Virus record (IMG/VR): IMGVR_UViG_3300007214_000006
Length of the DNA stretch: 64,000 nt
DNA from: a virus
Lineage: Duplodnaviria > Caudoviricetes
Strand: one strand, 5' to 3'
Shown: positions 4,501-64,000 of the stretch, one piece after another
Position numbering within the stretch: the stretch's first letter is position 1
Layout of the letters: every line of letters begins with the position of its first letter
The notes under the pieces: model-generated
Told to the model about the DNA's origin: nothing
Database searches by the model: none
What the model saw: the letters and a program-made list of their open reading frames with translations, nothing else
Position numbers and translations under genes: made by a program

Positions 4501-7500
4501 TTTATCTTATTAAGATCATAAATTATTTTATTTTTTCTTGCTGTTATTAATTCACCATTATTTTTATCTATAAAAGGTAGCATTTCTGATATTTTATTTG
4601 TTTTTTCTATAATATCATTTAAAATTGCCGATCCTTCTTCTATGCTTAAAGATGTTGTTTGATTTGTAGCATCGTCAATCCATTTTCTAGATGGAAGCTC
4701 AGTGAATTTTCTGGATAATTTATGTTTACTTTGGAACTTTAATGGCACAGAGTTATTGCTTGTTGATTGAATTTCATCAACACCGGTACCGAGCCCCCAA
4801 AATAAAGATTTTCCTGTTATTAATCTGTTTATATTTTTAGGTCTATTTATATCTTTGTTTTCATATAATTCGTCTGATGATAATAAATCTTCTTGAGATC
4901 TTGAGCTTAAAGCATAACCAATATTATCAAAGAAATAAAATTTTTCTTTTGTAATATCATTAGCGTTAATATATTTCCAATTTATATTATCTAATTTTAT
5001 GCTTTTATTAGTCCTACTTGTCTGTTCGTAATCTCTTTCGGCTTTGTCTTCTCTTTCTTTTTCGTCAGCTATATTTGACCATTTCTCATCTACAGCAACG
5101 TATCCTCCATCAGCATAATATTTTACCCTACCTCCACTACTATATCCTCCACTATTAATTTTATTTAATAACGGTAAATGTTTTTGCGTTGCTGATCGAT
5201 TAACCACAAACTCGCCAGGAGTTAACATAGCAGGAACAGTATCTGTGCCTTTTGGCTGAAAATTTACTAATTGTCCAGCAGCAGCGTATATTATACCTCC
5301 TGAGCTGAAACCGTCTGCTCCCATAGCCCCTGGTTTATTTTCAACAACCTGTCTTAACAGTTTAATTTCGTTTACAACATCGTTTAATTGAGCTCCCTCA
5401 AAGGTAAATTTAAATGTACTCATTACTGATGCAAGTTTTGTGGCCGCTGTTTCTTCGGTATTTTTGGCTATGGCTAAATTTAAAAGACCAAGTTCTTTAT
5501 TTGCAAGTGCCTGTAAATCAACTGCTTTTTTATATTCGGCGATTGCTGCTTGCATCTCAGGGTCACCTTCTGGATTTCTTAATGACTGAAGGACCTCTGC
5601 CATCATAGAATTAACGCCAACACCACTCTCCATAAGCATGCTTTCCAAAACATTAGCTTTCATTTCGTTTTGTTTTTCGCCAAGAAATGGTGCTATCATA
5701 TTAAAAGCATCCAAACTTTCTTTTCTCTGTTCTGCACTACTACCAAAGTTAATTCCGCCCTGCATATTATTATTTAATCTGTCCATTGCCCTATTTAGCT
5801 GACTAAATTCTTGAGGACTACTAGTCACCAGCCTTTCGGCCATATTGACACCGGCCTGTCTTTTTTGTTGTATCTCATTAATCTTGGCCATTGCGATACT
5901 GGCCATTTCGGTATTGTCTGCCATGCTCTTTAATGCGTCATAATTTTCTCTAAGAGCAATATTTGTATTTCTTAGCCTGTCTTGCATTAATTTAAATTCG
6001 TCAGCTCCACCAAAACCTCTTTGGCCAGCAGTATTACTCATGCTTTGTTGAGTTGCTCTTCTATCTTCCAATCTTCTAATATTTTGAGCTATAGCTGCCG
6101 GATCAGTTATTCCTCCAGTTTGACTTCTAACTCCAGCAGTAGCAACGTTCATTTGATCTCTCAAAGATATCTCTTTTCCAAGAACTTTATCCAATTCCAT
6201 TTGACCTCTAATTTGTATATCAGAAGCTCTTCTCATTCTAGAATTAGCTTCTACTTGTAAATCAACCATTTGATTCATGCTATTTGCATAATCATTTAAT
6301 CCATTTTGCCAATGTTCTAATGCTTTGAGTGCTGCTTCTTGTGCTCTTCTTGTAGCATCCATAACTTTTCCAAGTTGAGGAACTTTTTCCATTAAATCTC
6401 CAAAATCTATCTTTTCATCACCCTTTTGTCTAATTTGTCCTATAGCTTCATTGACTTGCTTGCTTAGTTTTGCAGATAAATCTGGCGGTATTTTTAGGTC
6501 TTCGAGTGCTTTTGATATATTGCTTTGTATCCTGATTCCAATTTTTTCATTTCCAGCTGTTGGGTCTTCTTTTATCGTTTTGTTAATAGTTGACATTATA
6601 GTATCTTCTATCGCTCCTCCAGCTTGTAATAATCCTTTCATTGTTGCTGATTCTGATCCAAACATATTGGCTGCATTTTGTGCGGCAGATGCTCTCTCGG
6701 TTTTGTTGTAAGCCCTTGGGTTTTGTAACACATTCATGCTTTTTAACGCAACTTGACCAGCTTTTGCATTTCCAGACAAAGCAGATGCTGATAGCTCTGC
6801 TTGTTGACTTAAATTATTTAATTGAAAAACATTACGTCCAATAGCTTGTTCCATATTCTGAAACATTCTTTCTAAGCTATTTTGTAAATGATTTGCTGAT
6901 CTATTTAGCTCTTCCAAAGATTTTTCTTTTAGGATTTTTGTTTGAATTTCTCTAGCTTTTCTTTCACCGTTTGCTGCTATAATACCAGCGATCATTGCTG
7001 ATTTTTGTTCTTTTTGAATATTTGTGCTATTTTCAATATTCATAATCTGTTCTTGTACAGATGCGTCCGCTAAAGCAAGACTTCTAATAAAGGAGTCGAA
7101 CTGGGGTTTATTTTCTGTCTCCAGATCAGATATAGATGTTCCAGATTTAATATTACTAGTTAAAAATTGTTGAGTAGCCTCTGCTGCCCCACGAAAATCA
7201 GCAGCTCTATCTCTTGACTTTTGTGGAATTAATGTAGAATATTGTCTAGATAATCCTATATCTGACGAAGAGTATCCTAAAGAATTTTTATTGGACATTC
7301 CAAACATGTTTGATATCGGATCTTCTAGTGTTTGTATATACGAGCCAACGCCTTTTGAAAATAATACTTCTGATCTTTTATCTACATTTTCTCCATAATC
7401 AAAAAGATTTGCAAATCCTAATTGAGGTTTATTTTTTGCCGTTATAACATTTTCTGTCTGTCCTATGGTCTGCAATACCTGCGTCCTAGCTGTTTCTTTA

Positions 7501-10500
7501 ACGGATCTATCTTTTAAATTTTCAGAAAATTTTTGTAAACTATTATTTGTTATTTCTATTGATGTCTCTAATTTTTTTTGTTCTGACGATATTGCAAATT
7601 CTCTAGCGGCATTTTCAGCATCAATAAAGGCTTTTGTCAATCCTATTACTGCTGTCGTCACCATTGCAACTGGTCCAGCAAATTTGGCGATACCACCCAT
7701 ACCTTGTGTCATCTCACTAACCATAGACCCCATCATCACAGAGCTGCCTATGGCAGTAGTCGCTCCCTGAGTTAGCGATTGTGATCTTGCTTGACTTGCT
7801 GTTTTTGCTTCTCCTCCAGCAAACAAATCGCCTATCATCGGAATAGCCATACTTAGCATAAAAGCTCTATTCATTGCACTATTTTGTCTATCTCCAGATG
7901 ATCCGGCTGCTACTGCTCTTCCTCCTACAAGCCCACCATTGTTTCTTCTTCTATTCGCAGCATTTCCAGCTAAAATAGCTTGTGAACCAGCACCCCCTCT
8001 ACCAAATCCTGCGTCTATCAAAGCTTGTTTTCTTGCTGCTGGGTCTAATGCCCTAAAACTATCACTTTGAGTTAAATCTCTCATAGAAGCCGATGCTCTA
8101 CGACCAGCTGCAACAGGAGCAATTCTGCTATTGGCAGTTGTTTGAGCATTTCTTGCTTGTTCTTGTGAAGAAAATGGCATTACTCCAATATTTTTTAATG
8201 TGTCTGGTAATACATTAGAAACCAAATTTCTAGCCCTTAATCCAGTTGATCTTATTGCTCCTCCTATTCCTCCAAGTCTATTTTGTCTTATTCGTTGAAT
8301 TTCTTCTTGTCTATCTCGTCTCTTATCACTGGAGTATATACTATCATAATAATCTCTACCAGTTTGATTGCCTCCAGCGCGTCTCTTAGGATTATATCTA
8401 CTAGACGGTCCAGAAACATCAGTCATTATTGTTTTCAAGCCTTGCTTATACTGCATAACTGCTGTTTTTTTTGCTTGTGCTATCTCTTTATCTGATTTTA
8501 ATGACATTTTCATTAATTGATTCGTCACCTGAGCATCAGTTAGATTTACTCCATATTGTTTTAGAGCAGCTTGTTTTATTCTCAGTATTCTTTGATCGAT
8601 ATCTATTGTGTCTGTTGCATATTTTTTTTGTATAGCTTGTATTCTATCGTCTCTTTCTTGACGAATGTTTCTTCTTAATGTTCTAGCCTGTGGTGTTGCT
8701 TCTGCAGTTTGCTGTCTTTGTTGCTGTCTCCTTCTAATTCTGGCTCTAATTTTATCTTCTCTTTGTTGAAGAGCATCTGCTTCTCCAGCTCTTATATCAT
8801 ATGTCATACCAGATCTTATATATTGTCCTGGCTCTAATGGTCTAACAGTTGTTCCTCTCGCAAACTTCTGAACAACTCCACCATTATGATATTTATTTAA
8901 TTTATGGAGATTAGAATATCCTATAGCTTGAGCAGAATGTCTGTTAATAACATACTCGCCCTCTTGGGCCATGATGGGTATTTCTCCACCAGCAGCATAT
9001 CTACCTCTAGCTCTTAAATATTTTTTTTGCTCTGTGGTTCTACCTTCATAATCAGAACTTCCTAGTCCTTGTCTTTGTTTCCATGTTGCTATTCTGTCTT
9101 GTTTTTGCATTATGGAGCCCTGTACCTTTTCAAGCAATCCAGCAGGCCCCGTATAAGGTCTTAAAGATTTTGGCAGCTTTTGGCTTTCACTGGGAATTCC
9201 CCAATCAGTATAAAATAAATCGCCTTTTGCGTTTCTTTTTGTAAATTCAGCTATAGCTTCTTCTGGGGTTAATGTTTTACCAGTAACCTCTCTCATTGCT
9301 TTTACAACATCATCTTTTAAATATTTCGATCCTCCATGAGTTATCAATTCTGGTCCTGATTCAGGAGCGCCTCCCTCGCTTAATTTTTGTACGGCTCCAC
9401 CAAAAGCAAAACCTCTAGCTTTAAGATAATTAGTAATATTGCTGGGTATTTTGCCTCTTGGTCCAGTTAAGGTTCTTTTGGCATCAACGGGAATATTAGC
9501 AAGCAAAGAATTATTAAACCAATTTCTTGCTATGGTTGCGCCAAGACCATAAGGAAAGTCAACGCTTCTATGAATCTCAGCTTCTTGTGCCATTGCCCCA
9601 TATAGTTGGGGCGCAGTTTCTTTAAGATAAGAACTAATTTCATTTTGAAATTTAGCCCCCTGGCTATCTGCTATTGCTTTTTTAGAGGCTCTATCTTTAT
9701 CAAATGTTAGTCCATAAGTATATGATTTGATATTTGATGCTTTTGCGGCCATAATATTTTCTGCAGCATCATCAACAAACACACTCGAAGATGACCCGGC
9801 GGCTTCTAATATTGTGTTTGCTTTTGCTACTCCAACAGCCTTATCTGACATACCGCTTCCACCGACACCTCTAACATTACCAGCCGGTATTGGTAAACCC
9901 TTTGAAGCCAACCATGAGGCAATAGCTCCCATTGTATTTTGAGGTCTAGCACTTACAACATACATATTCGACAATAAAGAAGATAACTGATCTGGCATTC
10001 TCTTTCGAGTTTTATTAACCAAACGCACCAGACCAGACATTAATATGCTGGGTTTTGCTTTCTGTAAGCCTCTGGTTACCAAATCAAGATCACCAAAAGC
10101 TGTATAGTCTGGTTTTGTTCCCTTTTTAGCTTTGTATCCTATTGGATCTGTTTTAAGTGCTAGCGTCTTATCAAAATCAAAAAATGCCTTTGTTCCCGAA
10201 CCGCCAGATAAAGCCTCAAGAATACTTTTTGTTAATCTCTCATTATTTCTTTTTCTAACACCAGATAATTCTTCTCTTGTATATTCTTTATCTAATTTAG
10301 ATGCTATTGGAGCATTTTTTATATCTATATAATTAGGATCATTTAGTTGTAACGATTTTAGTCTTGCGGCTCTAGCTGCTTTATTTTTGTCTAATACGGC
10401 ACCAAAGACTCTAACAGTAACTGGTTCTCTTAATCCCGCGCTTAATACTAACTCTTCTGGTGGAAATGGGTTCCCAAACATACCAACAGCACCAAATAGC

Positions 10501-34509: not shown

Positions 34510-36711
34510 CTAGATATTATTGTACACCATACAATAATAAGATATTTTAGCCTGTTTTTGCTGATCTGATGATAAAGGTTCTGACTGTTCTGATGATACC
34601 TGTTTGATCCATTTTTGATAATTGTTATATATAATAGAATTTTTATGAGAATCGATGTCTGCTATATTTTTGTTTAACATCAAATTGATATTAGAGTTTG
34701 GTTCAAGAGATAGGAATAATTTTGTCTTAAATTTTTCTATTTCTTTCGTTTCTTCGGCCGATAAACTTCTTAAGTCTTTTTTGCCATAAAAATCTAACAT
34801 TATAGGGTTAACTATTTGATTGATCTGATCTTGAGCTTTTATAGCCCATATCATAATAGAGGCACCGGTTTGCGGGGAAAAAGTCTTAGATTTTCTTTGT
34901 GTTTGATCCTTAGAGTTTTTTGGGCGACCTTGTTGTGGCTGACCAGATAACGATTCTGGCGAATCGTTTGCCAACTTAGTTGGCTTAGAGGGCAATCCTG
35001 GTATTTGTGGAGTTTTTAATTCTATCGCATTTTTTTCTCCACTCTTTTTCTTTTCTAATTCCAAACCTATTTGGCTAGGAGAAACAATACCTGTTTGTAA
35101 TGCAATTTTTCTTAATGAATTCTCAAATTCTGGATCAAACCATGGGCCAGCTTTTTGAACCATACGATTACTATCTCTTTCTCTATTTTCTCTATTAAGT
35201 CTATTCTTTTCTATATCGGGATCGAATCCAAATCTTGTTTGTAATAATTCATCGCTAATTAGATTTCTATCTGCTAGTTGTACTAATAATGCTTTTTCTG
35301 AATCTTCATTACTCAAGTCCATTCTATCAAACTCTATTTTAGCTGGGTATTTAAAACCCATAGCTTTTTGTACTAAGGCTATTTCTTGTTCCCAAAATTC
35401 TACTAGTACATCTCTACCATATTGTAATCTTTGTGTTAAAGTTTTTAGACTTATGAAATTATTTGTTGTTCCAGCTGCTCCAAAGGTGCCTGTTAGTGTT
35501 GGAGGAATTCCTAATCCAGCATAAACAGCATTAAGATGTGGTACATATTTTCCTTCTCCTAAAAAGTTATGTACATTAGTATTGCTTTCTATTAATTCTA
35601 TATCTGGACCCCATATTAGGTCCATTGTTCCTCCGCCAACATTGTTACCTAGAATACTAGCTAATTTGGATGTTGCTGCTTTTGTGGGGGCTATTTTGTG
35701 TTCTAAATTTCCAAGCTTAAAAATTCTTATATTACTAATAGCCCCATCTAATGCTGACATATCTGCTAATTTTAATTTTTCTATTACGGCAATATCATCC
35801 ATAATAGCATATATCATTGGATAGGCCCAGCTTTGCCAATCATCTTTTTTGTAATGAAACACTAAAGTTTTGTCAGAATCTAATGGATATCCTTTTTTAA
35901 TTTTAGCTGCTTCTATTATTTGTGATGGTAAATTTGCTACTACCTTTTTTTCTGCCTCTGTTTTAGGATTATTAATAATTTTTCTCAATGAGGGAGGAAC
36001 CTGTAATTCGTAGGTCTTGTTGGCAACAAAAGAAGACAAAGCCCCTGCTGTAACATCAACAAATACTGGATCTATAAAAGTATATTTCCAAGGTATTTCT
36101 CTCTTTTCAATGTTTGTCTCGTCAGTGTCATTAATAACAAGATCTGGTGATCCTAAACTCTTATATAATTTATCTGTAATTTTTAGATTAATTTTTGCTG
36201 TTCTGCGATCTATAACTATATTCCCACTTTTATATAGATTATTTAAAAATCTTTCGCTCCTATCTTTACCGTTAATCTTTTTGAACCATCTTCTATAAAA
36301 TCTTTCTATTCTTTTATTTCTATGTACTAATCTAATGCCTTGACTAGCAAAATCTCCCATAAGATCGACAACGTTTTTAACCAGACCAACTCTTTGATAT
36401 ATTTCTTCTGCTTTTTTTAAAATTAATTTTATTTTTATAGGAGGAGCTTCTTCTGGTCTAAAATTATAGTAATCTTGTTTTGTTAATCCTGGGCGACCTC
36501 CTGTTGGACCGTCTAGATTAGAAAAATCCATACGATATCTACCATACGAAGCAATAGATTTGTCTATTAGCGTAAATTCATCCAAAGAGGCCCCAGAATT
36601 TCTTAAAGCCTCTTTTTTGCTTTCTAGATCATCTCCCCATGTGATATAGGCTTCTTGTGGGATAACGGAAGCATTATTTATAATATCATCTTTAGTTTTT
36701 CTTTTAGCCAT
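34510..36711 (-). CDS. Portal protein
   Basis: 733 aa between TerL and the protease; helical core (VKNVVDLMGDF, RIFKLG, GIPPTLTG, IEFDRMDL). Confidence 0.8.
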   Translation of the reverse strand: MAKRKTKDDIINNASVIPQEAYITWGDDLESKKEALRNSGASLDEFTLIDKSIASYGRYRMDFSNLDGPTGGRPGLTKQDYYNFRPEEAPPIKIKLILKKAEEIYQRVGLVKNVVDLMGDFASQGIRLVHRNKRIERFYRRWFKKINGKDRSERFLNNLYKSGNIVIDRRTAKINLKITDKLYKSLGSPDLVINDTDETNIEKREIPWKYTFIDPVFVDVTAGALSSFVANKTYELQVPPSLRKIINNPKTEAEKKVVANLPSQIIEAAKIKKGYPLDSDKTLVFHYKKDDWQSWAYPMIYAIMDDIAVIEKLKLADMSALDGAISNIRIFKLGNLEHKIAPTKAATSKLASILGNNVGGGTMDLIWGPDIELIESNTNVHNFLGEGKYVPHLNAVYAGLGIPPTLTGTFGAAGTTNNFISLKTLTQRLQYGRDVLVEFWEQEIALVQKAMGFKYPAKIEFDRMDLSNEDSEKALLVQLADRNLISDELLQTRFGFDPDIEKNRLNRENRERDSNRMVQKAGPWFDPEFENSLRKIALQTGIVSPSQIGLELEKKKSGEKNAIELKTPQIPGLPSKPTKLANDSPESLSGQPQQGRPKNSKDQTQRKSKTFSPQTGASIMIWAIKAQDQINQIVNPIMLDFYGKKDLRSLSAEETKEIEKFKTKLFLSLEPNSNINLMLNKNIADIDSHKNSIIYNNYQKWIKQVSSEQSEPLSSDQQKQAKISYYCMVYNNI

Positions 36712-36767
36712 AATTTTTGATTATATCTTAATGAAATTGTAATTTGATTATATTTATATTATACACT

Positions 36768-38795
36768 TTATCTATAAATTCCGCTATATATATCATCATT
36801 TGCTCCGCCAACAAACCAATCAGGACCCTTATACATATTCCCATCGGTTTTATAGGAATCTTTTGCATTGGCTCCTATAACATCATAATCAACTGATTTA
36901 AAAGACCTATTTATTTGTCTAGCTAACATATTAGCTATTAATAAAGAGCTATATCTATCTTTTCTCATTCTTCCTCTTTTGCCTCCAGGCAGTTTAGTTT
37001 CTGGAGTATCCCATCTATCTCTTGCGTTAGGCCCAGTGCTGGTTTGAGTCATTACAATAGTTGTTAATTCATTTTTTAATTCTTCTATTTCTAATATACA
37101 CTCACTTAAACTATCATATAATGGACTAAGATCATCAGCAAATATATCTTTGCCATCACTCTCCATAGCTAAACCTAGAGTTAAGTTATCAAAAGCTGGA
37201 AATAATAATACTTTATCTTCTAAGTCTTTACGTAATCCATGATTAGCCTGACTAGTCCATTCTGCTTTGGCAAATTGTACTAATTCGAGAATATGTAATC
37301 CTTGTTGATTGTCTGTATCCTTAGTTTTGTCTAAGTCTATAATTGGCCATATTAATTGTTCGCCTTGTTCCAGTTTTCCTGGATCATGTAAAGCTTCTTC
37401 TATAGCTACTCCACCTCCTTGTGCGTCCATACCTATCTTGATTGGATTAAAAGTCTTCATCAAATTTCTAATTTTTCTGGCACAAAATCCATAAAAATCA
37501 TGATCTTCTACTAATCCTTTTTTGAGTCTTTCTTTAAAATTATTGCGATTTGTAGTCCAGCAATATACTATTTTATTATAATCTGCATTAACTTCAATAA
37601 TTACGATACTAAAATTATCTTGTTCACTTGCTGGGTCTATCCCATATACATATTGTTTTTTATGGTCTCCGCGTACCATGGCTTCGAATATTAATGGTTT
37701 ATCGTTAACTATGATATTTGTATTTGAAACTACACAGCTTTCTATTAAACTTCTACGAAAGAAACCCTCACTATCTTTTACAAAACACGCAGCATATTCC
37801 ATATTATATATGCCAGTATGTATTGTAGCTTTCGCTCTACTAACTTGCTTATCATCCATAAATCCTTTTGGAATTAATTCGTATGGTATTCTAATAATAC
37901 TATAGTCTTTCCAATTAAAATTATTCGGAACATCACCTTTAAAAATATCTTGAAGTTTTTGCTGGTCTCCTTTACTTTCTATAATAGCTTTGTATCTTTT
38001 CCAATAACTAGCAAAATGTTTAAAATCATAATCAGCCGTACCACTAATGATAGCTTGATTTCCCATCTTGGTATTTAATACTTCTAAATCATTATTCCAT
38101 ATTCCAGCTTTAATCATAGCTTGTTTACGAGCTTCTTCCTTTACGTTTTGTATAGGACTAGCGCTAACCGCAGCGAAACCAGCAACAACAGTCTCATAAA
38201 TATCCGGACTAATACTAGCAAACTCGTCCGCAATAATAATATGTGCTCTTAATCCTCTAATTTTGCTGCCATCACCCATAGGGATAGCTATGGTCCAACT
38301 GTCTCCAAGTCTCATTGTGCATCTATCAACATCTCTTCTAGGACCATCATCATTACTGCTAAAAATACTTCTCAAAATTGGACTATTTCTCCAAATAGTT
38401 TCCATATATTCAAAAATAATTTTACTTTGTCTAAATGCTGCTCCCACAACAACAATTTTTGTTCCTGGGAAAAAAGCACATTTTAAAACAGAATATAGGG
38501 CTAATAAAAAACTTTTTCCCCAACCACGACTAGCTACATACATTGGAAATGGTCGTATCCAAAATTCTTGAATAATAGCAATCTGTATAGGATGAAGTTC
38601 TATATTAAATAGTAATTTACAAGTTGTTCCTATATACTTAGGATTTCTTAAAAGTTTTATTAGATGTAAATCTGGATTTTCTATATCCTCTTCTTGTCTG
38701 CGTATCATCGGATTATCAATGATACTCAAAGAAGATAAATCTCCTAATCCAAGCCAAGCGTCATCAAAATTGCTTAACAAATCATGATTGGGCAT
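36768..38795 (-). CDS. terL: Terminase large subunit
   Basis: Walker A ASRGWGKS, Walker B IIADEF, RNase H-like YGIDPASEQD and IGMDAQGGG. Confidence 0.93.
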   Translation of the reverse strand: MPNHDLLSNFDDAWLGLGDLSSLSIIDNPMIRRQEEDIENPDLHLIKLLRNPKYIGTTCKLLFNIELHPIQIAIIQEFWIRPFPMYVASRGWGKSFLLALYSVLKCAFFPGTKIVVVGAAFRQSKIIFEYMETIWRNSPILRSIFSSNDDGPRRDVDRCTMRLGDSWTIAIPMGDGSKIRGLRAHIIIADEFASISPDIYETVVAGFAAVSASPIQNVKEEARKQAMIKAGIWNNDLEVLNTKMGNQAIISGTADYDFKHFASYWKRYKAIIESKGDQQKLQDIFKGDVPNNFNWKDYSIIRIPYELIPKGFMDDKQVSRAKATIHTGIYNMEYAACFVKDSEGFFRRSLIESCVVSNTNIIVNDKPLIFEAMVRGDHKKQYVYGIDPASEQDNFSIVIIEVNADYNKIVYCWTTNRNNFKERLKKGLVEDHDFYGFCARKIRNLMKTFNPIKIGMDAQGGGVAIEEALHDPGKLEQGEQLIWPIIDLDKTKDTDNQQGLHILELVQFAKAEWTSQANHGLRKDLEDKVLLFPAFDNLTLGLAMESDGKDIFADDLSPLYDSLSECILEIEELKNELTTIVMTQTSTGPNARDRWDTPETKLPGGKRGRMRKDRYSSLLIANMLARQINRSFKSVDYDVIGANAKDSYKTDGNMYKGPDWFVGGANDDIYSGIYR

Positions 38796-39357
38796 TTTTT
38801 GATTTTAATCTACGAGAAGTTTTTATCGCTCTTGAAACTATCATTTTTGCTACAGTTTCTATGAAAGGAAGTTTTCTTTTTTCGCTTTCTTGTTTTAACC
38901 ATCCAAGAATAGTAGTCATATTTTGTTCGCACCAATCATTGCCTTTTTCATTCATTTCTATAGCATGTCGTTTGCAGCTACAAGTTGGTGTGGTTTTAAT
39001 ACCCATAGCAGCTATCATACCAGACAATATGCTTCCCGGACCATCTGGATCAGATTCTAAAGTTTTGGGAAATAATGATTGTAGATATGTTTGTGGATCA
39101 TCACCTAGTTTGCTCAATAATATAGATTCTAGATTGTCTATTGTTAAATTTAGAACATTTGTATGATTTTGTAATCCATCGACTAACATGATAGGAGAAG
39201 GAATTCCGACAATCTGTGCATACATAGTATTATTCGTGGGTCTAATTATGTATGTAACATCTAATTCGGAATATGTAGTTGGTTCAGGATGTACTATTTT
39301 ACCATTAGTGTGAGTATATGGTGGTTGTTTGATGGTGACTTCTTTATTTAGTTTCAT
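38782..39357 (-). CDS. Hypothetical protein with a C-terminal CSC...WC helical domain
   Basis: ORF track; overlaps both neighbours. Confidence 0.65.
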   Translation of the reverse strand: MKLNKEVTIKQPPYTHTNGKIVHPEPTTYSELDVTYIIRPTNNTMYAQIVGIPSPIMLVDGLQNHTNVLNLTIDNLESILLSKLGDDPQTYLQSLFPKTLESDPDGPGSILSGMIAAMGIKTTPTCSCKRHAIEMNEKGNDWCEQNMTTILGWLKQESEKRKLPFIETVAKMIVSRAIKTSRRLKSKNAQS

Positions 39358-39841
39358 CTTGTTTCTCCTTTTTATTAAGTATTTCTTCTATATAATAGAT
39401 TTTTTTTAATATATATTCTGCCATTTTTTGAGCATTGGACGAATCGCCACAAAAATATACTATGATATTGTGATTAATCTGCAACTCCAAAATATTTTTA
39501 ATAAGAAAGGCTGGAGTAATCTTGATTTTATCCCATAATCTTTTAGGAACAGTACTACCTATCGGATAAATTAATAAGTCTTCTAAATCAAATTCTAATA
39601 ATAAAAATGAGTATTTCATATTACTCAGTCTAGAAACAACATCAATAAATCTGCTTTCAACTACATTATTAGCAAACTCACTAGCGCTTTTCTTTCTTTC
39701 TATGCATACAATGTTTTCCAATCCTTCTACACTATAGTCTCCGGTATCAAGTTTTCGATGCGCTATCGCATGATGAGGAAAATCCCACGGTTGCTGTTCT
39801 CTTGTGTCTATAACAATTATAAAATCATTATGATTGGCCAT
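39344..39841 (-). CDS. ERCC4/XPF-family nuclease domain protein
   Basis: IVIDTREQ...LDTGDYS...CIERKK signature. Confidence 0.88.
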   Translation of the reverse strand: MANHNDFIIVIDTREQQPWDFPHHAIAHRKLDTGDYSVEGLENIVCIERKKSASEFANNVVESRFIDVVSRLSNMKYSFLLLEFDLEDLLIYPIGSTVPKRLWDKIKITPAFLIKNILELQINHNIIVYFCGDSSNAQKMAEYILKKIYYIEEILNKKEKQDETK

Positions 39842-40103
39842 TTTTTTTACTCGCTACTATTTTTAAAAAAATAGATTCGTATATATGCTCCAATCCTTTT
39901 ATTAGTTTATGATGGTATGAACAAAGAGTAATACCATTATCTATAGTAAATCTTAAACCAATATTATTTGCCCATGTTTTAATATGGTGAGCATTAAGTT
40001 TTCTTTTTAAATTACACTGTGGCCATTGGCATTGGAAATTATCTCTTTTATATACGTCTTGTCTCCATTTTTTATATATAGGATCTTGAAAATTTCTATT
40101 CAT
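39828..40103 (-). CDS. HNH endonuclease
   Basis: WRQDVYKRDNFQCQ..C...AHHIK...DNGITLCSYHH. Confidence 0.9.
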   Translation of the reverse strand: MNRNFQDPIYKKWRQDVYKRDNFQCQWPQCNLKRKLNAHHIKTWANNIGLRFTIDNGITLCSYHHKLIKGLEHIYESIFLKIVASKKNGQS

Positions 40104-41088
40104 ATTTAGATTTTTCTATATCAGAAATAACCATGTCTTGCACCAAATCATCAAAAGATATTTTTGGCTTCCAATTAAGAACTTTTCTTGCTTTATTAGA
40201 GACACCTCTTAAAAATTCAACTTCGGCTGGTCTATATAACTCTTGATCAATTTCTATATGGTCTAAATAATTTAAGTTAACAACCTTAAAAGCTTTTTCT
40301 AAAAATTCTTCGACAGTATGAGATTCTCCTGTGCTTATAACAAAATCATCCGGAGTATCGCTTGTAAGCATTAGTTTCATAGCCTCAACATAATCTTTAG
40401 CGTGTCCCCAATCTCTTACGGCTTTAATATTACCCAATTTTAATTTAACGTCTGTTTTTTTATTTACTAATTCGCCGATATATTTAGTAATTTTTCTAGT
40501 AACAAAATTCTCTCCTCTTCTTGGACTTTCATGATTGAATAATATGCCACTAGTAGCATATAAATTATATGCTTCTCTATAGATTTGAACCATTCTGTGA
40601 CTAGCTAATTTAGCCACAGCATAAGGACTTTGAGGTAAAAATGCGGTATTTTCATCTTGATATTTTTTGCCATCAATATCTAAAAGATAATTACGACCAA
40701 ACATCTCACTAGTACTAGCTTGATAAAATCTGGTTGTAGAAGAAAATTTTCTTATATTTTCTAAAATATTTATCACTCCTACAGAATTAATTTCGAATGT
40801 TGTTGTTGGTTGCTTAAAGCTAGTTGAAACATGACTTTGAGCTGCTAAATTATAAAAATGATGGGGTCTATGTTTGGTGATTATATTTACACAATCAGAA
40901 GGATCGGTAATATCGAATTCTTCTAATATAATTTTTTTATTATCTAATAAATGTTTTATTCTCTGAAAATTAGTATTACTACTCCGTCTATATAGCCCAA
41001 CAACAGAATAACCAGTGCGCAATAACAATTCTGCTAAATAACTACCGTCTTGACCAGTAATCCCAGTAATAGCTGCTGTTTTCATCAT
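40096..41088 (-). CDS. gmd: GDP-mannose 4,6-dehydratase
   Basis: ITGITGQDGSYLAELL, YNLAAQSHV, YQASTSEMFG, SPYAVAK, FNHESPRRGENFVTRKIT, RDWGHAKDYV. Confidence 0.96.
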   Translation of the reverse strand: MMKTAAITGITGQDGSYLAELLLRTGYSVVGLYRRSSNTNFQRIKHLLDNKKIILEEFDITDPSDCVNIITKHRPHHFYNLAAQSHVSTSFKQPTTTFEINSVGVINILENIRKFSSTTRFYQASTSEMFGRNYLLDIDGKKYQDENTAFLPQSPYAVAKLASHRMVQIYREAYNLYATSGILFNHESPRRGENFVTRKITKYIGELVNKKTDVKLKLGNIKAVRDWGHAKDYVEAMKLMLTSDTPDDFVISTGESHTVEEFLEKAFKVVNLNYLDHIEIDQELYRPAEVEFLRGVSNKARKVLNWKPKISFDDLVQDMVISDIEKSKYE

Positions 41089-41900
41089 GATTCTATAGTA
41101 TCCGGAGTTAAAAAGGGTTTATCTAAAACGCTGTCCTGATATTGATGATATTCGGCTAGTTTATTTTTATTTTTTTCTGTGGCTATAGCTAATATTTCCA
41201 TTTCTTTGCCTTCTTTTTCTCTGATTGTTTCGTCTTCGAGCATTCTTATTAATCCTATCCAACTACTTTTTCCATCTTCTATTCTTTTGATTCTTTGTTC
41301 TCTTGTTGCTTTTAGATCTTTACTAATTTTTTGTTGTTCATTAAGTAATTTTGTATATTCGTTAGTATAATTTGCTATACTATTTCTAGCAAAACTAAGT
41401 TGAGTCTCTAAATTAGCTAGTTTTGGAATATCTCTTTGGTCCTCTGGTTTCTCGTATTCTGTATCAACTAATTTTTGAAGTTTGTCTGTTTCGGCAATAT
41501 GTCTTTTTCTTTCTTTCATGCTTCTATTTATAAGGATATCTATTGTTATAAATTGTTTAATTTGTAGTTCTTCTGCTGGTAAAACATCTTCACGGAACTG
41601 TTGTATTAATCCAACCCAAGTATCTTCAAAGTATTCCAACTCTCCGGTATCACTATCAAATTGTCTAACAATTTCTGACCAAAATGTTTTAGTATATAAT
41701 TTTCTTTTAAGAATTTCTAAATCTTTTAAGTTTTCGCTAGATGATATATTATTTTCTTTAATGTATCTATTAATGGGATCCTTATTTCTATTTAGTGATT
41801 CTGCAATCTCTTCAATAGATAATACCATTATATTATCTCTAATAAATTTTTCTTCTTCTAAGCTTAACTGTCCTCTTTTTTTAGGTAAATTTTTTGACAT
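41085..41900 (-). CDS. HTH plus coiled-coil protein (possible terminase small subunit or regulator)
   Basis: N-terminal LSLEEEKFIRDN...SIEEIAESLNR helix-turn-helix pattern; C-terminal coiled coil; in the operon upstream of TerL. Confidence 0.45.
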   Translation of the reverse strand: MSKNLPKKRGQLSLEEEKFIRDNIMVLSIEEIAESLNRNKDPINRYIKENNISSSENLKDLEILKRKLYTKTFWSEIVRQFDSDTGELEYFEDTWVGLIQQFREDVLPAEELQIKQFITIDILINRSMKERKRHIAETDKLQKLVDTEYEKPEDQRDIPKLANLETQLSFARNSIANYTNEYTKLLNEQQKISKDLKATREQRIKRIEDGKSSWIGLIRMLEDETIREKEGKEMEILAIATEKNKNKLAEYHQYQDSVLDKPFLTPDTIES

Positions 41901-42514
41901 TATTTTTCATTTTTAAGGTTATTAACAATTGATTCTATATGATTTTGTAATTTTTTAAGTTGTTGTTTTGGTATTTTTTCTCCATGCTTTAATCTTAGAT
42001 AACTTTCCCTGAACTCCGGTTGTATATTTTCATCTAATAATTTTATTATTTCGTGATTTTGCATTTTTGAATCAAAACTTTTATTATTACTGATGTCGTA
42101 TTCTATATATGATGGCTGCATAATATTTTTTTTCGCAATATTTCTCGATGCCCAGGTTGAATACAAATCGCAATCGTCTTTATTTGCATATTTGGAACAC
42201 TGGTTTTTTGATTGTTTATAGTTTGGATCATACAAAGGACATGTTAAACAAGGAATGTCTGGTCTTTGGTAATTATTTCTCTTATAATTAAACAATCTAT
42301 TTCTAACATGAGTCCATAAAAAATTTTCTAATGGTCTAGTATTGTCGTATTTTTCTAAACCTTCTAAAGCAAAAATAGCCGCTTGCTGTTTCATATCTTC
42401 AATATCGTGATACCCAAAACGAAACTTATGAGCTAATCTTTTGCCTATATTATCTAGTACTCTTAAAAAATCTTCTTCAGAAACTTGATTATTAGTTTTC
42501 TTTTTTTTGTTCAT
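41900..42514 (-). CDS. Phage sigma70-like factor with a Cys4 insert
   Basis: Region-2-like DIEDMKQQAAIFALEGLEKYD...NFLWTHVRNRLFNYKR, then C-x2-C-x13-C-x8-C, then a short degenerate region 4. Confidence 0.75.
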   Translation of the reverse strand: MNKKKKTNNQVSEEDFLRVLDNIGKRLAHKFRFGYHDIEDMKQQAAIFALEGLEKYDNTRPLENFLWTHVRNRLFNYKRNNYQRPDIPCLTCPLYDPNYKQSKNQCSKYANKDDCDLYSTWASRNIAKKNIMQPSYIEYDISNNKSFDSKMQNHEIIKLLDENIQPEFRESYLRLKHGEKIPKQQLKKLQNHIESIVNNLKNEK

Positions 42515-42644
42515 TTAATAATTCTGCTATAGCTTTGCCCTCTGGTAAGTCTAACTCCGACGCAATAGCATTATCAGAAACATCACAGCCGGATGCTCTA
42601 ATAAATAACACAGAATCAACTAAATTAATTTCTTCTTTTTTCAT
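42492..42644 (-). CDS. Small protein (50 aa; not in the ORF track)
   Basis: Manual translation MKKEEINLVDSVLFIRASGCDVSDNAIASELDLPEGKAIAELLNEQKKEN; AGGAG RBS upstream. Confidence 0.6.
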   Translation of the reverse strand: MKKEEINLVDSVLFIRASGCDVSDNAIASELDLPEGKAIAELLNEQKKEN

Positions 42645-42732: not shown

Positions 42733-42972
42733 ATGGCTAATTATAAAAAATGGTCAAATGCGGAACTAGATTTTATTCAAAATAATCATAATCTACTATG
42801 TGATGAAGCATTAGCTTCAAAATTAAGTCAAATGACGAGTCAAAATATTAGTACTGCTATGGTTCGTCGCCAAAGAAGGAAATTATCTTTAAAAAAGAAT
42901 AGAGGGCGCCCAAAAAAAATTATATCGAATAATATAACACAAGTATCCGATAGTAGTGTTGTTGAAGCATGA
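42733..42972 (+). CDS. Small HTH-like DNA-binding protein
   Basis: KWSNAELDFI...DEALASKL...STAMVRRQRRKL pattern with a basic RGRPKK tail; AAGGA RBS. Confidence 0.6.
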   Translation: MANYKKWSNAELDFIQNNHNLLCDEALASKLSQMTSQNISTAMVRRQRRKLSLKKNRGRPKKIISNNITQVSDSSVVEA

Positions 42973-43274
42973 TTACTAAAAAAATAATACTATGTATTGC
43001 GATATGTTGTTGTATGGGAGCGGGGTGGTGTCAGCCAAAACAGATAATCCCACCACAAATAATACCTCAACAAGTTATAGTATATAGTGGACATGCTTCG
43101 TACTATGGATATTATTCTCATTATTACGCACCGGTTGTAACACAAAATATTAGATATTATCCATATATTGAAAATAGATTAGAATATAAGCCTATTATGT
43201 ATTATAATACATATGTAATTCCACATTACAATTATCAAGATAGTTATATCTATCCATACTATTTTAATTATTGA
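42969..43274 (+). CDS. Tyr/Pro-rich small protein with a signal-peptide-like N-terminus
   Basis: MITKKIILCIAICCCMGAGWC followed by YYGYYSHYYAP...; ATGA overlap with the upstream gene. Confidence 0.55.
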   Translation: MITKKIILCIAICCCMGAGWCQPKQIIPPQIIPQQVIVYSGHASYYGYYSHYYAPVVTQNIRYYPYIENRLEYKPIMYYNTYVIPHYNYQDSYIYPYYFNY

Positions 43275-61355: not shown

Positions 61356-61658
61356 GTTGTTTTTTAAAAATAATGATGAATAAAAATACTATTAAAATAG
61401 TACACCTTATCATTTTAAAATAGGTTATGCAGATTGTGTGGGTTTGTGCTCATGGTGCTATGCATCTTATAGATATTAGAAAAATATATCTATGTTACCA
61501 GAATAGTAAGGATCATAAGAATAGTATTATGGGTTTAATAGATAGGATTAGGTGATACTTTTATATTTTTGAGTGCTTATTGTTTATGGATGTCCTTGCG
61601 ATTTTTATAAATACTAGAATATTCAAATAAGAAATGAAAAAACCCCCTAGTTCATATA

Positions 61659-61850
61659 CGCCCGCATTTTTGACGTAAGTTATTGCCTCGCAAGGGTTTG
61701 CGTCAAGTTCAGATAGCAAATGGTGTGCCAAATGGCCAAAAAATGTTTGGCATGATATTTGCTGCTAGCAACCTTACGGTATTGTAAGCAAGATTTTTGT
61801 TGACCTCTCAAGATGGTTTGGTATAATGCCGATATAAGAGAAAAGGGAAA
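61659..61850 (+). repeat. Early regulatory cassette, copy 1 (lacks palindrome A)
   Basis: CGCCCGCATTTTTGA, palindrome B 61674-61702, sigma54-like pair 61715-61731(-)/61747-61763(+), CTTAC-N6-GTAAG, TTGACC-N16-TATAAT (61800-61827). Confidence 0.85.
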
Positions 61851-61853
61851 CAA

Positions 61854-62009
61854 ATGCTCAACATCTACAACGACTACAACGATCCCGATCAAACCTATGA
61901 TGAGAATGTAGAAACTATCTGGATCAGTCCCTGCTGCGGATTCGAGGTAGAAAATACCGAAACCGTTTGCCCAAACTGCGACCATACCATTGTGCCTCTT
62001 GCCTCTTGA
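61854..62009 (+). CDS. Small acidic zinc-ribbon protein (51 aa; not in the ORF track)
   Basis: MLNIYNDYNDPDQTYDENVETIWISPCCGFEVENTETVCPNCDHTIVPLAS, directly after the cassette-1 promoter and RBS. Confidence 0.7.
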   Translation: MLNIYNDYNDPDQTYDENVETIWISPCCGFEVENTETVCPNCDHTIVPLAS

Positions 62010-62060
62010 CTCTGAATCTTTTCTCGGTTAGACTTACCCTAAACCCCAAAGGATAGCATC

Positions 62061-62267
62061 ATGAGCAACGACTTTGTTTACAACATGAGCGAAATCAACG
62101 AAGAGGAAATCGTGAAGGGATGGGATGAAATCAACGACGAGGCGGATTATATTCCGGGTTTGGACGATGGGGAGGGATATGATCCGATCATGGGCGACGA
62201 TGACGAATGGCTCGACACGGACGACGAATGGCTCGACGATTTTCAGGGCGAGGAAGATTTTGCCTGA
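62061..62267 (+). CDS. Highly acidic small protein (DNA-mimic candidate)
   Basis: 27 of 68 residues are D/E, with one K and no R; DDEWLD occurs twice. Confidence 0.7.
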   Translation: MSNDFVYNMSEINEEEIVKGWDEINDEADYIPGLDDGEGYDPIMGDDDEWLDTDDEWLDDFQGEEDFA

Positions 62268-62304
62268 AATAAATATTCCGGCATAGCGTTTGCTGGGCAA
62301 GATC

Positions 62305-62540
62305 GACGTAAAGCCTTACGCTATAAGGACTTACGGCGATTTTTCGCCCGCCGAATCGACGTAAGTTGTTATGCATCAACACTTTACGTTCAATGGCCAC
62401 AGCAAACCTTGTGCCAAAAATACTTTATTCTATGGTACGCTATTTGCTCTCGCAACCTTACGATATTGTAAGGAAAGATTTTGCTTGCAAGTTGAAGATA
62501 GACCCGTATAATGCCGATATAGAAAGAAACGGAGAAAGAA
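62305..62540 (+). repeat. Early regulatory cassette, copy 2
   Basis: Palindromes A 62307-62335 and B 62360-62388, sigma54-like pair 62401-62417(-)/62432-62448(+), TTGCAA-N16-TATAAT (62485-62512), GGAG RBS. Confidence 0.9.
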
Positions 62541-62542
62541 AA

Positions 62543-62779
62543 ATGGAAATGATCGTGGGACAGGTTGCCAAGGTTGAATACGCTACGGGCGAGAAGTTTA
62601 TCGGTGAGATTGTGAAGGTTCGCACGATGCCCGAACAAATCGAGGTTTTCGGCGTTGGCCCTACTGGCGTGTTGCAGAATCGTGTGCTGTTCACGGTTCA
62701 CGACGAGAGCGTAGGCTATCGTTCGCTCTATGTTGACAAGTGTGCTAGAATCGAAACGTTGACCCTTCAAACCCTCTGA
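62543..62779 (+). CDS. Small beta-rich protein (78 aa; start corrected from 62366)
   Basis: MEMIVGQVAKVEYATGEKFIGEIVKV...; ATG 8 nt after GGAG and downstream of the cassette-2 promoter. The longer track ORF runs through the repeat. Confidence 0.7.
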   Translation: MEMIVGQVAKVEYATGEKFIGEIVKVRTMPEQIEVFGVGPTGVLQNRVLFTVHDESVGYRSLYVDKCARIETLTLQTL

Positions 62780-62790
62780 AAAGAAAAAAA

Positions 62791-62991
62791 ATGAGCGTCT
62801 CCGAAATGATCTGCGAACTCGAATCCTATGGTATGATCGTTCAGCGTGTGCCGAACCAACCGAACACTCTGCACGTTGACGGCTACCATCCCCCTCATTG
62901 TAAGGGGTTGCCCGATTGGCTATGGGAATGCCCCGGTTGGGGGGTATCGTCGTGTGGCATTTCAAGGGTATTCCTGTTCAGGGTAGGATAA
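62791..62991 (+). CDS. Hypothetical protein (66 aa)
   Basis: ORF track; follows the previous gene after 11 nt. Confidence 0.55.
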   Translation: MSVSEMICELESYGMIVQRVPNQPNTLHVDGYHPPHCKGLPDWLWECPGWGVSSCGISRVFLFRVG

Positions 62992-63014
62992 CCCCCCATT
63001 AGGGGTACGAGCTT

Positions 63015-63248
63015 GATGTAAAGCCTTACGCTGTAAGGACTTACAACAAGTTTTCGCCCGCATTTTTGACGTAAGTGCTTACAGGATAACGACTTAGAGC
63101 AAATCGCCATAGCAAACAGCATACCAAGGAATAAAAGTTTCTTTGGTACAACTTTTGCTGCTAGTAACCTTACGATATTGTAAGAAAGATTTTGCTTGCA
63201 ATCTAAAGTGACCGCTGTATAATGCCGATATAGAAAGCAAAGGAGAAA
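63015..63248 (+). repeat. Early regulatory cassette, copy 3
   Basis: A 63017-63045, B 63070-63098, sigma54-like pair 63111-63127(-)/63143-63159(+), TTGCAA-N16-TATAAT (63196-63223), AGGAG RBS. Confidence 0.9.
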
Positions 63249-63249
63249 G

Positions 63250-63465
63250 ATGATGAACGAAAATATCAAGAGTGCGATTCGGCAGATTTGGGGAAGCGAG
63301 AGTCACCAGATTTCCCTGCTGCTAACGCCGCAAGGTGTGTTGTATGCCGAGTGCGAGTCTACGATGGATCGTCGCAGGCTCACGGAAAGCAACTACCGTG
63401 AAGTGCTGAACGATATGTTCTACGATTACTGCGTGGAAAACGCGGCTTGGATGGGAGTCTCATGA
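63250..63465 (+). CDS. Hypothetical early protein (71 aa)
   Basis: ORF track; AGGAG RBS; downstream of the cassette-3 promoter. Confidence 0.7.
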   Translation: MMNENIKSAIRQIWGSESHQISLLLTPQGVLYAECESTMDRRRLTESNYREVLNDMFYDYCVENAAWMGVS

Positions 63466-63481
63466 CCACCTACTAGGGGGG

Positions 63482-63510
63482 TTGCGGAGACAAAAAAAGT
63501 TTCGTACACT
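63482..63510 (+). promoter_or_regulatory. Possible weak sigma70-type promoter
   Basis: TTGCGG-N17-TACACT upstream of 63537. Confidence 0.35.
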
Positions 63511-63536
63511 ACATCATCACCAAGAGGAAAAAAGAA

Positions 63537-63866
63537 ATGACCACCAAGTTCAAGATCATCGAAGATGCCAAGCGTCAGGCTCGCATGTGCTTTGTGGGAA
63601 TCGCAATCCCTCACCAGCCTACGCTTGCTGCGGGAGAGTACGGCCCGATTCGTTCGGAAAAGATTCTCAAGTTCAATCGCTCCGCGTTGCGGAATATCGG
63701 CAAGAAAAAGATAGAAAAGGCTGACCCCCGCTTCAAGGGGGGTGACGATCTCATGATCGTGAAGGTTGGCAAGCCCGGCTCCGCCGAAAGGGTGGCCGCT
63801 CTGGCCGAACAGTATGCTGCGATCCTCGCCTGCGGCGAGGAGGTATCCCCCTTCTCGGAGGGGTGA
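63537..63866 (+). CDS. Hypothetical early protein (109 aa)
   Basis: ORF track; GAGG RBS. Confidence 0.7.
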   Translation: MTTKFKIIEDAKRQARMCFVGIAIPHQPTLAAGEYGPIRSEKILKFNRSALRNIGKKKIEKADPRFKGGDDLMIVKVGKPGSAERVAALAEQYAAILACGEEVSPFSEG

Positions 63867-63894
63867 ACAAGCGTACACTAGTGTACAAAGATTC

Positions 63895-64000
63895 GACGTA
63901 AACCCTTGTGGCACAAGGACTTATGGCGATTTTTCGCCCGCATTTTTGACGTAAGTGCTTGTGACATAACGACTTACGTTCAATGCTAATAGCAAACCGC
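63895..64000 (+). repeat. Early regulatory cassette, copy 4 (truncated by the window end)
   Basis: A 63897-63925, B 63950-63978, and the start of the AGCAAA element at 63991, with the same spacings as the other copies. Confidence 0.88.

Follow-up and report, generated by a model that had tools for sequence, protein, structure and literature searches.

The window analysed here is a 64,000-nt stretch (bases 57333–121332) of the 122,965-bp linear IMG/VR virus record IMGVR_UViG_3300007214_000006 (Caudoviricetes), estimated to be 82% complete, and near its right end lie seven 29-bp palindromes, each with two 11-bp arms around a 7-bp core, that are the subject of this report. The record encodes a large terminase, a major-head-like protein, and giant open reading frames (ORFs). 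Its large terminase shares only 26% identity with those of Bacillus phages, the DNA that carries the palindromes has no match among cultured relatives, and the record has no close cultured relative. The GC fraction is ∼0.33 over most of the record and 0.47–0.48 from about window position 61640 to the record end; this 4-kb high-GC tail is an array of small plus-strand ORFs, most with their own sigma70-like promoter. Direct-repeat analysis places the palindromes in ∼240-bp intergenic modules that recur every 686–880 bp, numbered here from the left as modules 1 to 4.

The palindromes had been proposed in a sequence-only reading of the window, and we could confirm all seven from the sequence, at 61674, 62307, 62360, 63017, 63070, 63897, and 63950; the cores listed for them (GCCTCGC, ACGCTAT, ATGCATC, ACGCTGT, ACAGGAT, GTGGCAC, and GTGACAT, respectively) each match exactly. 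The arms are imperfect, with 6–9 of 11 positions forming Watson–Crick pairs. The pattern CGTAARNNNTT-N7-AANNNYTTACG, allowing up to two mismatches, matches the window eight times, as compared to 0.13 matches expected from shuffles; seven matches are the sites above, and the other is a stray AT-rich two-mismatch one at 6808. A position-weight scan of the whole record returned exactly nine sites, all within its last 4 kb, the two additional ones lying beyond the window end at window-equivalent positions 65233 and 65286. The bare skeleton TAA-N4-TT-N7-AA-N4-TTA, with ∼2.3 chance matches expected in the whole record, matches seven times in the array and three times elsewhere.

The sites fall into two classes: P1 (62307, 63017, and 63897), found shortly 3′ of a gene end, and P2 (61674, 62360, 63070, and 63950), found upstream of a sigma70-like promoter, with each P2 in a pair beginning exactly 53 bp after its P1. 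Module 1 has a lone P2-type dyad (61674–61702) that is the first site and left edge of the array, preceded only by the right part of a linker. In module 2, the P1-type dyad (62307–62335) begins 39 nt past the stop of the gene at 62061–62267 and forms with its flanks a long hairpin followed by T5; it is joined by a 24-nt linker (62336–62359), containing a small GGCGA/TCGCC hairpin and a T-run, to the P2-type dyad (62360–62388). Module 3 comprises a P1-type dyad (63017–63045), in which the outer pair is changed from C-G to T-A and after which TTTT follows, and a P2-type dyad (63070–63098); module 4 comprises a P1-type dyad (63897–63925), located 30 nt past the stop of the gene at 63537–63866 and followed by T5, and a P2-type dyad (63950–63978). 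Plus-strand sigma70-like promoters lie at 61800–61827 (module 1; TTGACC-16-TATAAT with TG), 62485–62512 (module 2; TTGCAA-16-TATAAT, then a conserved GCCGATATAG), and 63196–63223 (module 3; from the promoter scan and the repeat analysis). The cargo between the modules consists of six small co-directional early ORFs on the plus strand (61854–62009, 62061–62267, 62543–62779, 62791–62991, 63250–63465, and 63537–63866).

The same organization extends well beyond this record. A profile of P1, linker, and P2 retrieved 453 units, none overlapping, from 68 related IMG/VR loci; 272 of these units are distinct and gap-free, and the unit is a rigid 82 bp (P1, a 24-nt linker, and P2). Three CheckV-complete relatives (153–233 kb) each carry 13–16 double units, all in one 15–20 kb stretch and none elsewhere; a reversed-pattern control in these three genomes gave 0 matches. 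The clade is common in freshwater metagenomes, with relatives of one of its early genes and of the candidate regulator described below on contigs that reach about 244 kb. A search of 185k genomes for the paired skeleton, made to identify the host, yielded contigs with several hits, which are these phage arrays placed in the bins of unrelated freshwater metagenome-assembled genomes, and single hits that are AT-rich chance matches.

Across the 272 copies, both 29-mers share the skeleton C-S-T-A-A-n4-T-T-R-n5-Y-A-A-n4-T-T-A-S-G. The AA at positions 4–5 and the TT at 25–26 are invariant in P1 and P2 alike, and the TT at 10–11 and AA at 19–20 are conserved in 84–99% of copies, while the seven core columns hold 0.1–0.8 bit each (mostly 0.1–0.4), so the core is nearly free. 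Each unit can thus be described as four inverted ∼12-bp half-sites, Y-S-T-A-A-(g-t-c-c)-T-T-R, all converging on CGTAAGTCCTTR. Neighboring sites keep the 53-bp register in 299 of 319 pairs, and nearly all the remainder are at 51, 52, or 54 bp. The unit also keeps close company with the preceding gene. P1 begins 0–1 nt past the upstream ORF stop in 77 of the 272 units (loci L005–L084); the stop directly before P1 is TGA in 44 units, with a TGA one base away in 21 more, and in another 27 units the upstream stop is supplied by the invariant TAA of P1 itself (positions 3–5).

On its other side the unit is tied to the next promoter. A match to TTGACA-16/17-TATAAT/TAGAAT lies downstream of P2 in 203 of 265 units, and the distance from P2 to the −35 hexamer is trimodal (18–21, 26–34, and 37–43 nt), with almost nothing between the classes. 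These distances put the P2 center near −68, −78, or −88, and the P1 center 53 bp (five turns) further up. The Rayleigh statistic R peaks at 0.61–0.63 for a period of 10.5–11 bp (132 unique spacers), as compared to 0.27 for the 99.9th percentile of the null, and each spacing class precedes 12–59 different downstream genes. Helical phasing is a property of the DNA whatever its cause, and the spacer between P2 and the promoter is composed of phased A and T tracts.

Several smaller elements accompany the dyads. A third palindrome, CCTTACGATATTGTAAGG, lies immediately 5′ of the −35 box at 61772–61788, 62456–62473, and 63168–63184; it is built of the same CTTACG/GTAAG words, set back to back in the opposite order, and is found in ∼17 of 265 modules, exclusively with the long promoter type. 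Directly past the −10 box is a conserved GCCGATATAG or GTCGATATAAG (62513–62522, 63224–63233, and 61828–61837); the short promoter class instead has a related CCGATAAT within the −35/−10 spacer. The GCCGATATAG-type element may serve at the start site or represent a second signal that overlaps. Between the stop of the conserved 109-aa gene (63537–63866) and P1, at 63871–63884, is a short perfect palindrome, GTACAC-n-GTGTAC; it recurs at 7906–7919 of the related locus L005 and is retained in several relatives. Modules 1–3 additionally show back-to-back sigma54-like boxes, TGGYAY-N5-TTGCT, on both strands: 61715–61730 (−) and 61748–61763 (+), 62401–62416 (−) and 62433–62448 (+), and 63111–63126 (−) and 63144–63159 (+).

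A conserved palindrome may act as an RNA hairpin or as a double-stranded site for a symmetric protein, and the two classes of dyad behave differently here. At the variable arm positions (2 and 6–9), Watson–Crick pairs are no commoner than independence predicts. Swapping partner arms between units leaves the complementarity of P1 unchanged (7.63 of 11 for true partners vs 7.52 for swapped ones), while in P2 true partners are less complementary than swapped ones (7.01 vs 7.35, z −5.5). Fixed-register pairing, counted in a gap-free alignment of 149 units, is scarcely above its shuffled control for the canonical hairpins (70.7% of cells paired vs 69.9%), a shifted helix (57.9 vs 55.9%), or the entire unit as one long hairpin (74.1 vs 73.0%). 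C·A and U·G mismatches are about equally frequent, so that neither strand shows the asymmetry to be expected of an RNA under selection. On both strands, P2 is less stably folded than chimeric controls (z +5 to +9). P1 with 8-nt flanks, on the other hand, folds to −13.7 kcal/mol as compared to −10.1 for chimeras, an improvement of 3.6 kcal/mol (z −20) that is larger on the plus strand. Its fold registers are heterogeneous: 67 units have the hairpin center at unit position 15, and 59 have it at 22. We conclude from these comparisons that the dyad symmetry of both sites is conserved as sequence, as it would be if a symmetric protein read the double-stranded DNA, and that the neighborhood of P1 has been selected, in addition, to fold as a terminator-like or 3′-end hairpin.

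This second conclusion bears on the strongest of the rival explanations, in which both palindromes would be hairpins of the plus-strand transcript (intrinsic terminators, 3′-end stabilizers, or RNase processing sites, the stem-loop part of a known type of phage cassette described below) and no dedicated DNA-binding protein would be needed. In this genome P1 with its flanks does form a long hairpin, with an A-tract before the stem and a run of T4–5 after it (fold z −3.6 to −4.1); at window-equivalent 65233 a different hairpin followed by TTTT takes the place of P1. The adjoining stop codons, the stability of P1, and its better folding on the plus strand than on the minus strand all fit, and an alternative helix between P1 positions 7–12 and linker positions 2–7 is five-fold enriched over column-shuffled controls. 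Such a transcript-only account nevertheless meets the inferior folding of P2, the negligible fixed-register covariation of every helix tried, and the parity of C·A and U·G mismatches. No helix exceeds an average pair probability of 0.33, and a T4+ run occurs within the first 12 nt past P1 in only 41 of 272 units (15%). A simple terminator scan reports only the small linker hairpin, and Rfam has no family for the unit at E ≤ 1. The invariant AA and TT steps, the strict 53-bp spacing of the sites, and their helical phasing relative to the promoter would moreover be unexpected of RNA hairpins. We consider this explanation unlikely as an account of both sites.

The sequence-only reading had offered two interpretations, namely operators or enhancers for a dimeric regulator and recombinase sites, and the data favor the former over the latter: the dyads are kept as sequence without compensatory, co-evolving pairs, the two sites hold a fixed 53-bp register, and the pair is helically phased to the promoter, a combination to be expected of an operator pair for a dimeric DNA-binding regulator. 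Two points go beyond that reading: P1 also forms a terminator-like hairpin in the present genome, and the sites belong to terminator–promoter cassettes that are repeated. The best reading, which we hold with moderate confidence, is of paired operator-like sites with putative protein binding, placed inside cassettes that resemble the promoter-early stem-loop (PeSL) cassettes of T4-type phages (PMC2839356, PMC4122927). The 82-bp units separate the small early-gene cassettes of this phage clade, and a dimeric protein would dock on the four half-sites of each as double-stranded DNA. With five helical turns in 53 bp, two such dimers would share one face of the helix and would lie upstream of the following sigma70-type early promoter, at the distances given above. 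Their likely function would be to set the strength or timing of the whole array, probably its shut-off. The anatomy, the conservation pattern, the phasing, the shuffling, and the confinement of the sites to the array are observed, whereas protein binding, which protein binds, and the direction of regulation are inferred. P1 would have a second job, adjoining the stop codon of the preceding gene in a stretch that in this genome is a terminator-like hairpin, and the unit and the promoter together would make up a PeSL-like terminator–promoter cassette. Repetition of the cassette would in turn let related phages swap genes by homologous exchange.

A candidate for the protein that might bind these sites is a 79-aa protein, found as a small ORF upstream of the arrays of relatives and with a homolog in the window at 42733–42972 (+), which combines a helix-turn-helix (HTH)-like domain with an AT-hook. 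It is highly conserved (29 aligned copies) and has 204 relatives in IMG/VR. Its structure model has helices at residues 9–18, 24–35, and 41–50, with a predicted local distance difference test score (pLDDT) >90 for most of residues 10–50, and its disordered tail has an invariant RGR core (RGRP in >90% of copies), which we read as an AT-hook. The gene stands at the array head in relatives: the first dyad lies 224–3710 nt (median 756) downstream of it in 41 of the 57 loci with enough sequence, and 285 sites are downstream of it as compared to 7 upstream. We therefore put this protein forward as the putative binder of the half-sites; an HTH on the outer YSTAA patch and an AT-hook on the inner TT/AA step would fit a half-site made of two patches. 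Directly after the candidate gene is a 101-aa Tyr/Pro-rich ORF with a signal-like N-terminus (42969–43274, +), and the same pair of genes precedes the array in L005 (4791–5288). An IHF-like reading of the AA-N4-TTR element was considered and dropped, the motif lying ∼4 bp nearer the dyad than in IHF sites; the HU/IHF family PF00216 was not found in this record or in four relatives, and PHROG and Pfam scans revealed no HTH, ribbon-helix-helix, or HU regulator. The 109-aa early protein encoded at 63537–63866 was also considered as a binder and dropped, its model having a pLDDT of 67, with neither a fold match nor an Atlas lead.

Several observations weigh against paired operators served by this protein. 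The candidate gene is 18 kb from the array in this genome, where an 18-kb block of surface-protein genes is inserted between the two. Its match to the AT_hook family is below threshold (E 0.012), a sequence search of the PDB with it returned nothing, and its Foldseek matches are all non-significant (best E 1.4), though nearly all are HTH DNA-binding domains; Pfam scans of 50 other proteins of the phage found no recognizable regulator. The helical phasing may be a by-product of the phased A/T tracts in the spacer, reflecting DNA curvature as much as protein bound at P2, and the near-consensus promoters may need no activator. Finally, there is weak but real covariation between the right arm of P1 and the left arm of P2, the pair with the highest mutual information (complementarity 8.34 vs 7.89, z 7.7); this is not predicted by a simple model of four half-sites.

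The paired-operator reading can be taken a step further, to a clade-specific nucleoprotein punctuation in which the HTH and AT-hook protein would bind all four half-sites of a unit as a tetramer, stopping read-through from upstream (as a roadblock over a weak hairpin) and clamping or releasing RNA polymerase at the next promoter, at each of ∼15 boundaries. This elaboration is a good deal more speculative than the paired operators themselves, and we think it improbable in its full form; if it were true, one protein would switch a whole 15–20 kb host-takeover array on or off.

Recombination is the other interpretation that had been raised for these palindromes. The units would then be site-specific recombination sites, either tyrosine-recombinase cores of the pdif or lox style or 82-bp attC-like sites in clusters of attC sites lacking integrases (CALINs) that are served by a host enzyme. 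There is something to recommend this. The 11-7-11 layout of a tyrosine-recombinase core, with 11-bp arms and a 7-bp spacer, is present in all sites, and two inverted simple sites about a GC-rich linker make the classic layout of a 59-base element. Co-directional cassette ORFs end in or against the unit, CCTAA…TTAGG variants resemble attC R boxes, the inner arms P1R and P2L covary weakly, gene content is shuffled among relatives, and virulent phages have been reported to carry such integrase-less clusters (Qi et al. 2023, PMC9892861).

The closer features of such sites are nonetheless missing. The cores are hypervariable within one genome, with all seven window cores different, and cores so unconstrained are unfavorable for strand exchange by a tyrosine recombinase. 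Of the attC boxes R″ (RYYYAAC) and R′ (GTTRRRY, with a conserved G|TT), the sites keep TTA-S-R, but the core G stands at position 24 in only 5% of copies of either palindrome, and position 6 carries A or G in place of C. Covariation is lacking between the outer boxes P1L and P2R (z −0.7), the linker is fixed at 24 nt, unlike the variable center of attC, and every cassette has its own promoter. The search for a tyrosine recombinase that the sequence-only reading had called for found no PF00589 protein in this record or in four CheckV-100% relatives, and no PF00239 protein was found in those four relatives.

The breakpoints tell the same story. In related arrays, and in a small sample, they are scattered over unit and promoter without focus on the core. 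Crossovers in 19 unit pairs that share one flank only are spread from unit position −12 to +142, with 1 of 19 in the core, and 29 of 143 high-identity homology breakpoints are near a unit, about the chance rate, with none in the core. Mapping of recombinants from three sequences yielded only 4 triplets, none of them clean. Gene order differs between this record and L005, and in public freshwater DNA runs a joint from 61763 to 62454 connects modules 1 and 2 at equivalent module positions. Variant contig junctions in three such runs fall mainly at 62506–62542, within the promoter and 5′ leader of module 2; beyond 62542 all three share one alternative sequence, which means that behind this promoter the population carries alternative cargo. 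Scattered junctions of this kind are, on sequence grounds, what homologous exchange between repeated cassettes would predict. A recombinase is thus not supported by the evidence, which is negative though limited; a host-encoded enzyme could still serve the sites, and we rate recombination sites of either style as very unlikely.

Least credible of all, and by a wide measure improbable, is a role of P1 and P2 as enhancers (upstream activator sequences), with a sigma54 activator driving −24/−12 boxes between P2 and the sigma70 promoter: in modules 1–3 of the window P2 and P1 do lie ∼80 and 135 bp upstream of the plus-strand box, a typical enhancer distance, but such a box follows only 63 of 265 units while the other 202 proceed directly to a sigma70-type promoter, the better-conserved box faces backwards at a fixed 12 nt from P2, so that its predicted start is at the edge of P2 rather than downstream of it, and no PF00158 activator (bacterial enhancer-binding protein) was found in this phage record. 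The dyads cannot in general be sigma54 enhancers.

The setting of the array and its cargo deserve a few further remarks. The GC switch is sharp and lies near 61640, inside the counterpart of a truncated unit's linker (the high-GC part is record 118970–122965); a separate origin, or avoidance of AT-directed silencing, may be the cause of the jump. Chimeric assembly was rejected as its explanation: pattern and protein-guided scans found the same array organization in many independent metagenome contigs, joined to low-GC phage genes homologous to window 36356–42537. The record starts (bases 1–240, outside the window) inside a collagen-like G-Y-Q-G-D-Q repeat gene and ends inside an array promoter, leaving the array truncated; neither end is therefore a genome terminus, and each is an assembly break in a repeat.

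None of the six array ORFs in the window matches a Pfam family. The 109-aa protein has 109 relatives in IMG/VR and matches nothing in the phage collection. Several cassettes have genes for very small CxxC…CxxC zinc-ribbon proteins (window 61854–62009; record 121464–121661; L005 8256–8414), and a cassette at window-equivalent 64710–65021 (L005 11138–11446) matches the Pfam family Kyano_Gp96 of T4-like cyanophages (E 7.5e-11). In L005, three tandem ∼57-bp GC-rich repeats with AGCCGAACTAGTCGGCT hairpins (8425–8600) stand in place of the usual inter-cassette unit, and a single related hairpin is found at window-equivalent 64340–64365.

The early host-takeover regions of uncultured phages consist of genes that are almost entirely unknown, as is their timing. 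This clade shows a cis-code of unusual regularity, with its four half-sites, 53-bp spacing, and promoter phased by helical turns, and it offers a candidate trans-factor; the control logic of its array could be tested with synthetic DNA and one small protein, with no need of the host. The PeSL idea, that regulatory cassettes double as recombination handles, would be extended beyond T4-type phages. There is also a caution here, that 11-7-11 palindromes beside shuffled genes need not be recombinase sites.

Among known systems, Xer dif and pdif sites share the 11-6/7-11 palindromic geometry and the habit of flanking small gene modules. The arms here are not dif-like, however, the 7-bp spacer is hypervariable, and the sites come in fixed pairs of a single orientation beside promoters, with no recombinase found and no breakpoint focus. 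The attC site, or 59-base element, is likewise built of two inverted-pair simple sites, mutually inverted about a GC-rich center, with one site per co-directional ORF that often overlaps its stop codon. Here, in contrast, the length is fixed and it is the sequence rather than the structure that is conserved; the core G of GTTRRRY is missing, the R boxes do not covary, each cassette has a promoter, crossover points are scattered, and no integrase was found in five genomes.

The PeSL cassettes, between the repeats of which homologous exchange has been proposed (Arbiol et al. 2010, PMC2839356; Comeau et al. 2014, PMC4122927), come nearer. Both are short composite modules, of a promoter and a terminator (here a terminator-like hairpin), between small, non-essential, co-directional early genes, both have near-consensus promoters of the sigma70 type, and in both it is entire cassettes that distinguish related phages, the exchange taking place within the repeated modules. 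The PeSL, however, is one short GC stem-loop with a T-run, whereas the unit described here combines two 29-bp dyads, held 53 bp apart, that comprise four conserved 12-bp half-sites, and its stems hardly covary; moreover, this phage is not T4-like, as its terminase attests, and the array is 14 GC points richer than the remainder of the genome.

The protein p4 of phage phi29 regulates from paired 27-bp imperfect inverted repeats (PMC3100819). Those sites resemble the 29-bp dyads in being long imperfect inverted repeats with conserved outer ends and A/T steps and a free center, read partly by shape, and in placing two adjacent dimer sites per region upstream of sigma-A/sigma70 promoters, the dimers being putative here. 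They are unlike in sequence (CTTTTT-N15-AAAATG as compared to CGTAAGTCCTT-N7-AAGGACTTACG), no p4 homolog was found, and the site pair occurs 13–16 times per genome rather than in two regions as in phi29. The PeSL cassette is the closest known kind to these units, and the paired inverted repeats of phi29 p4 are their closest working analog.

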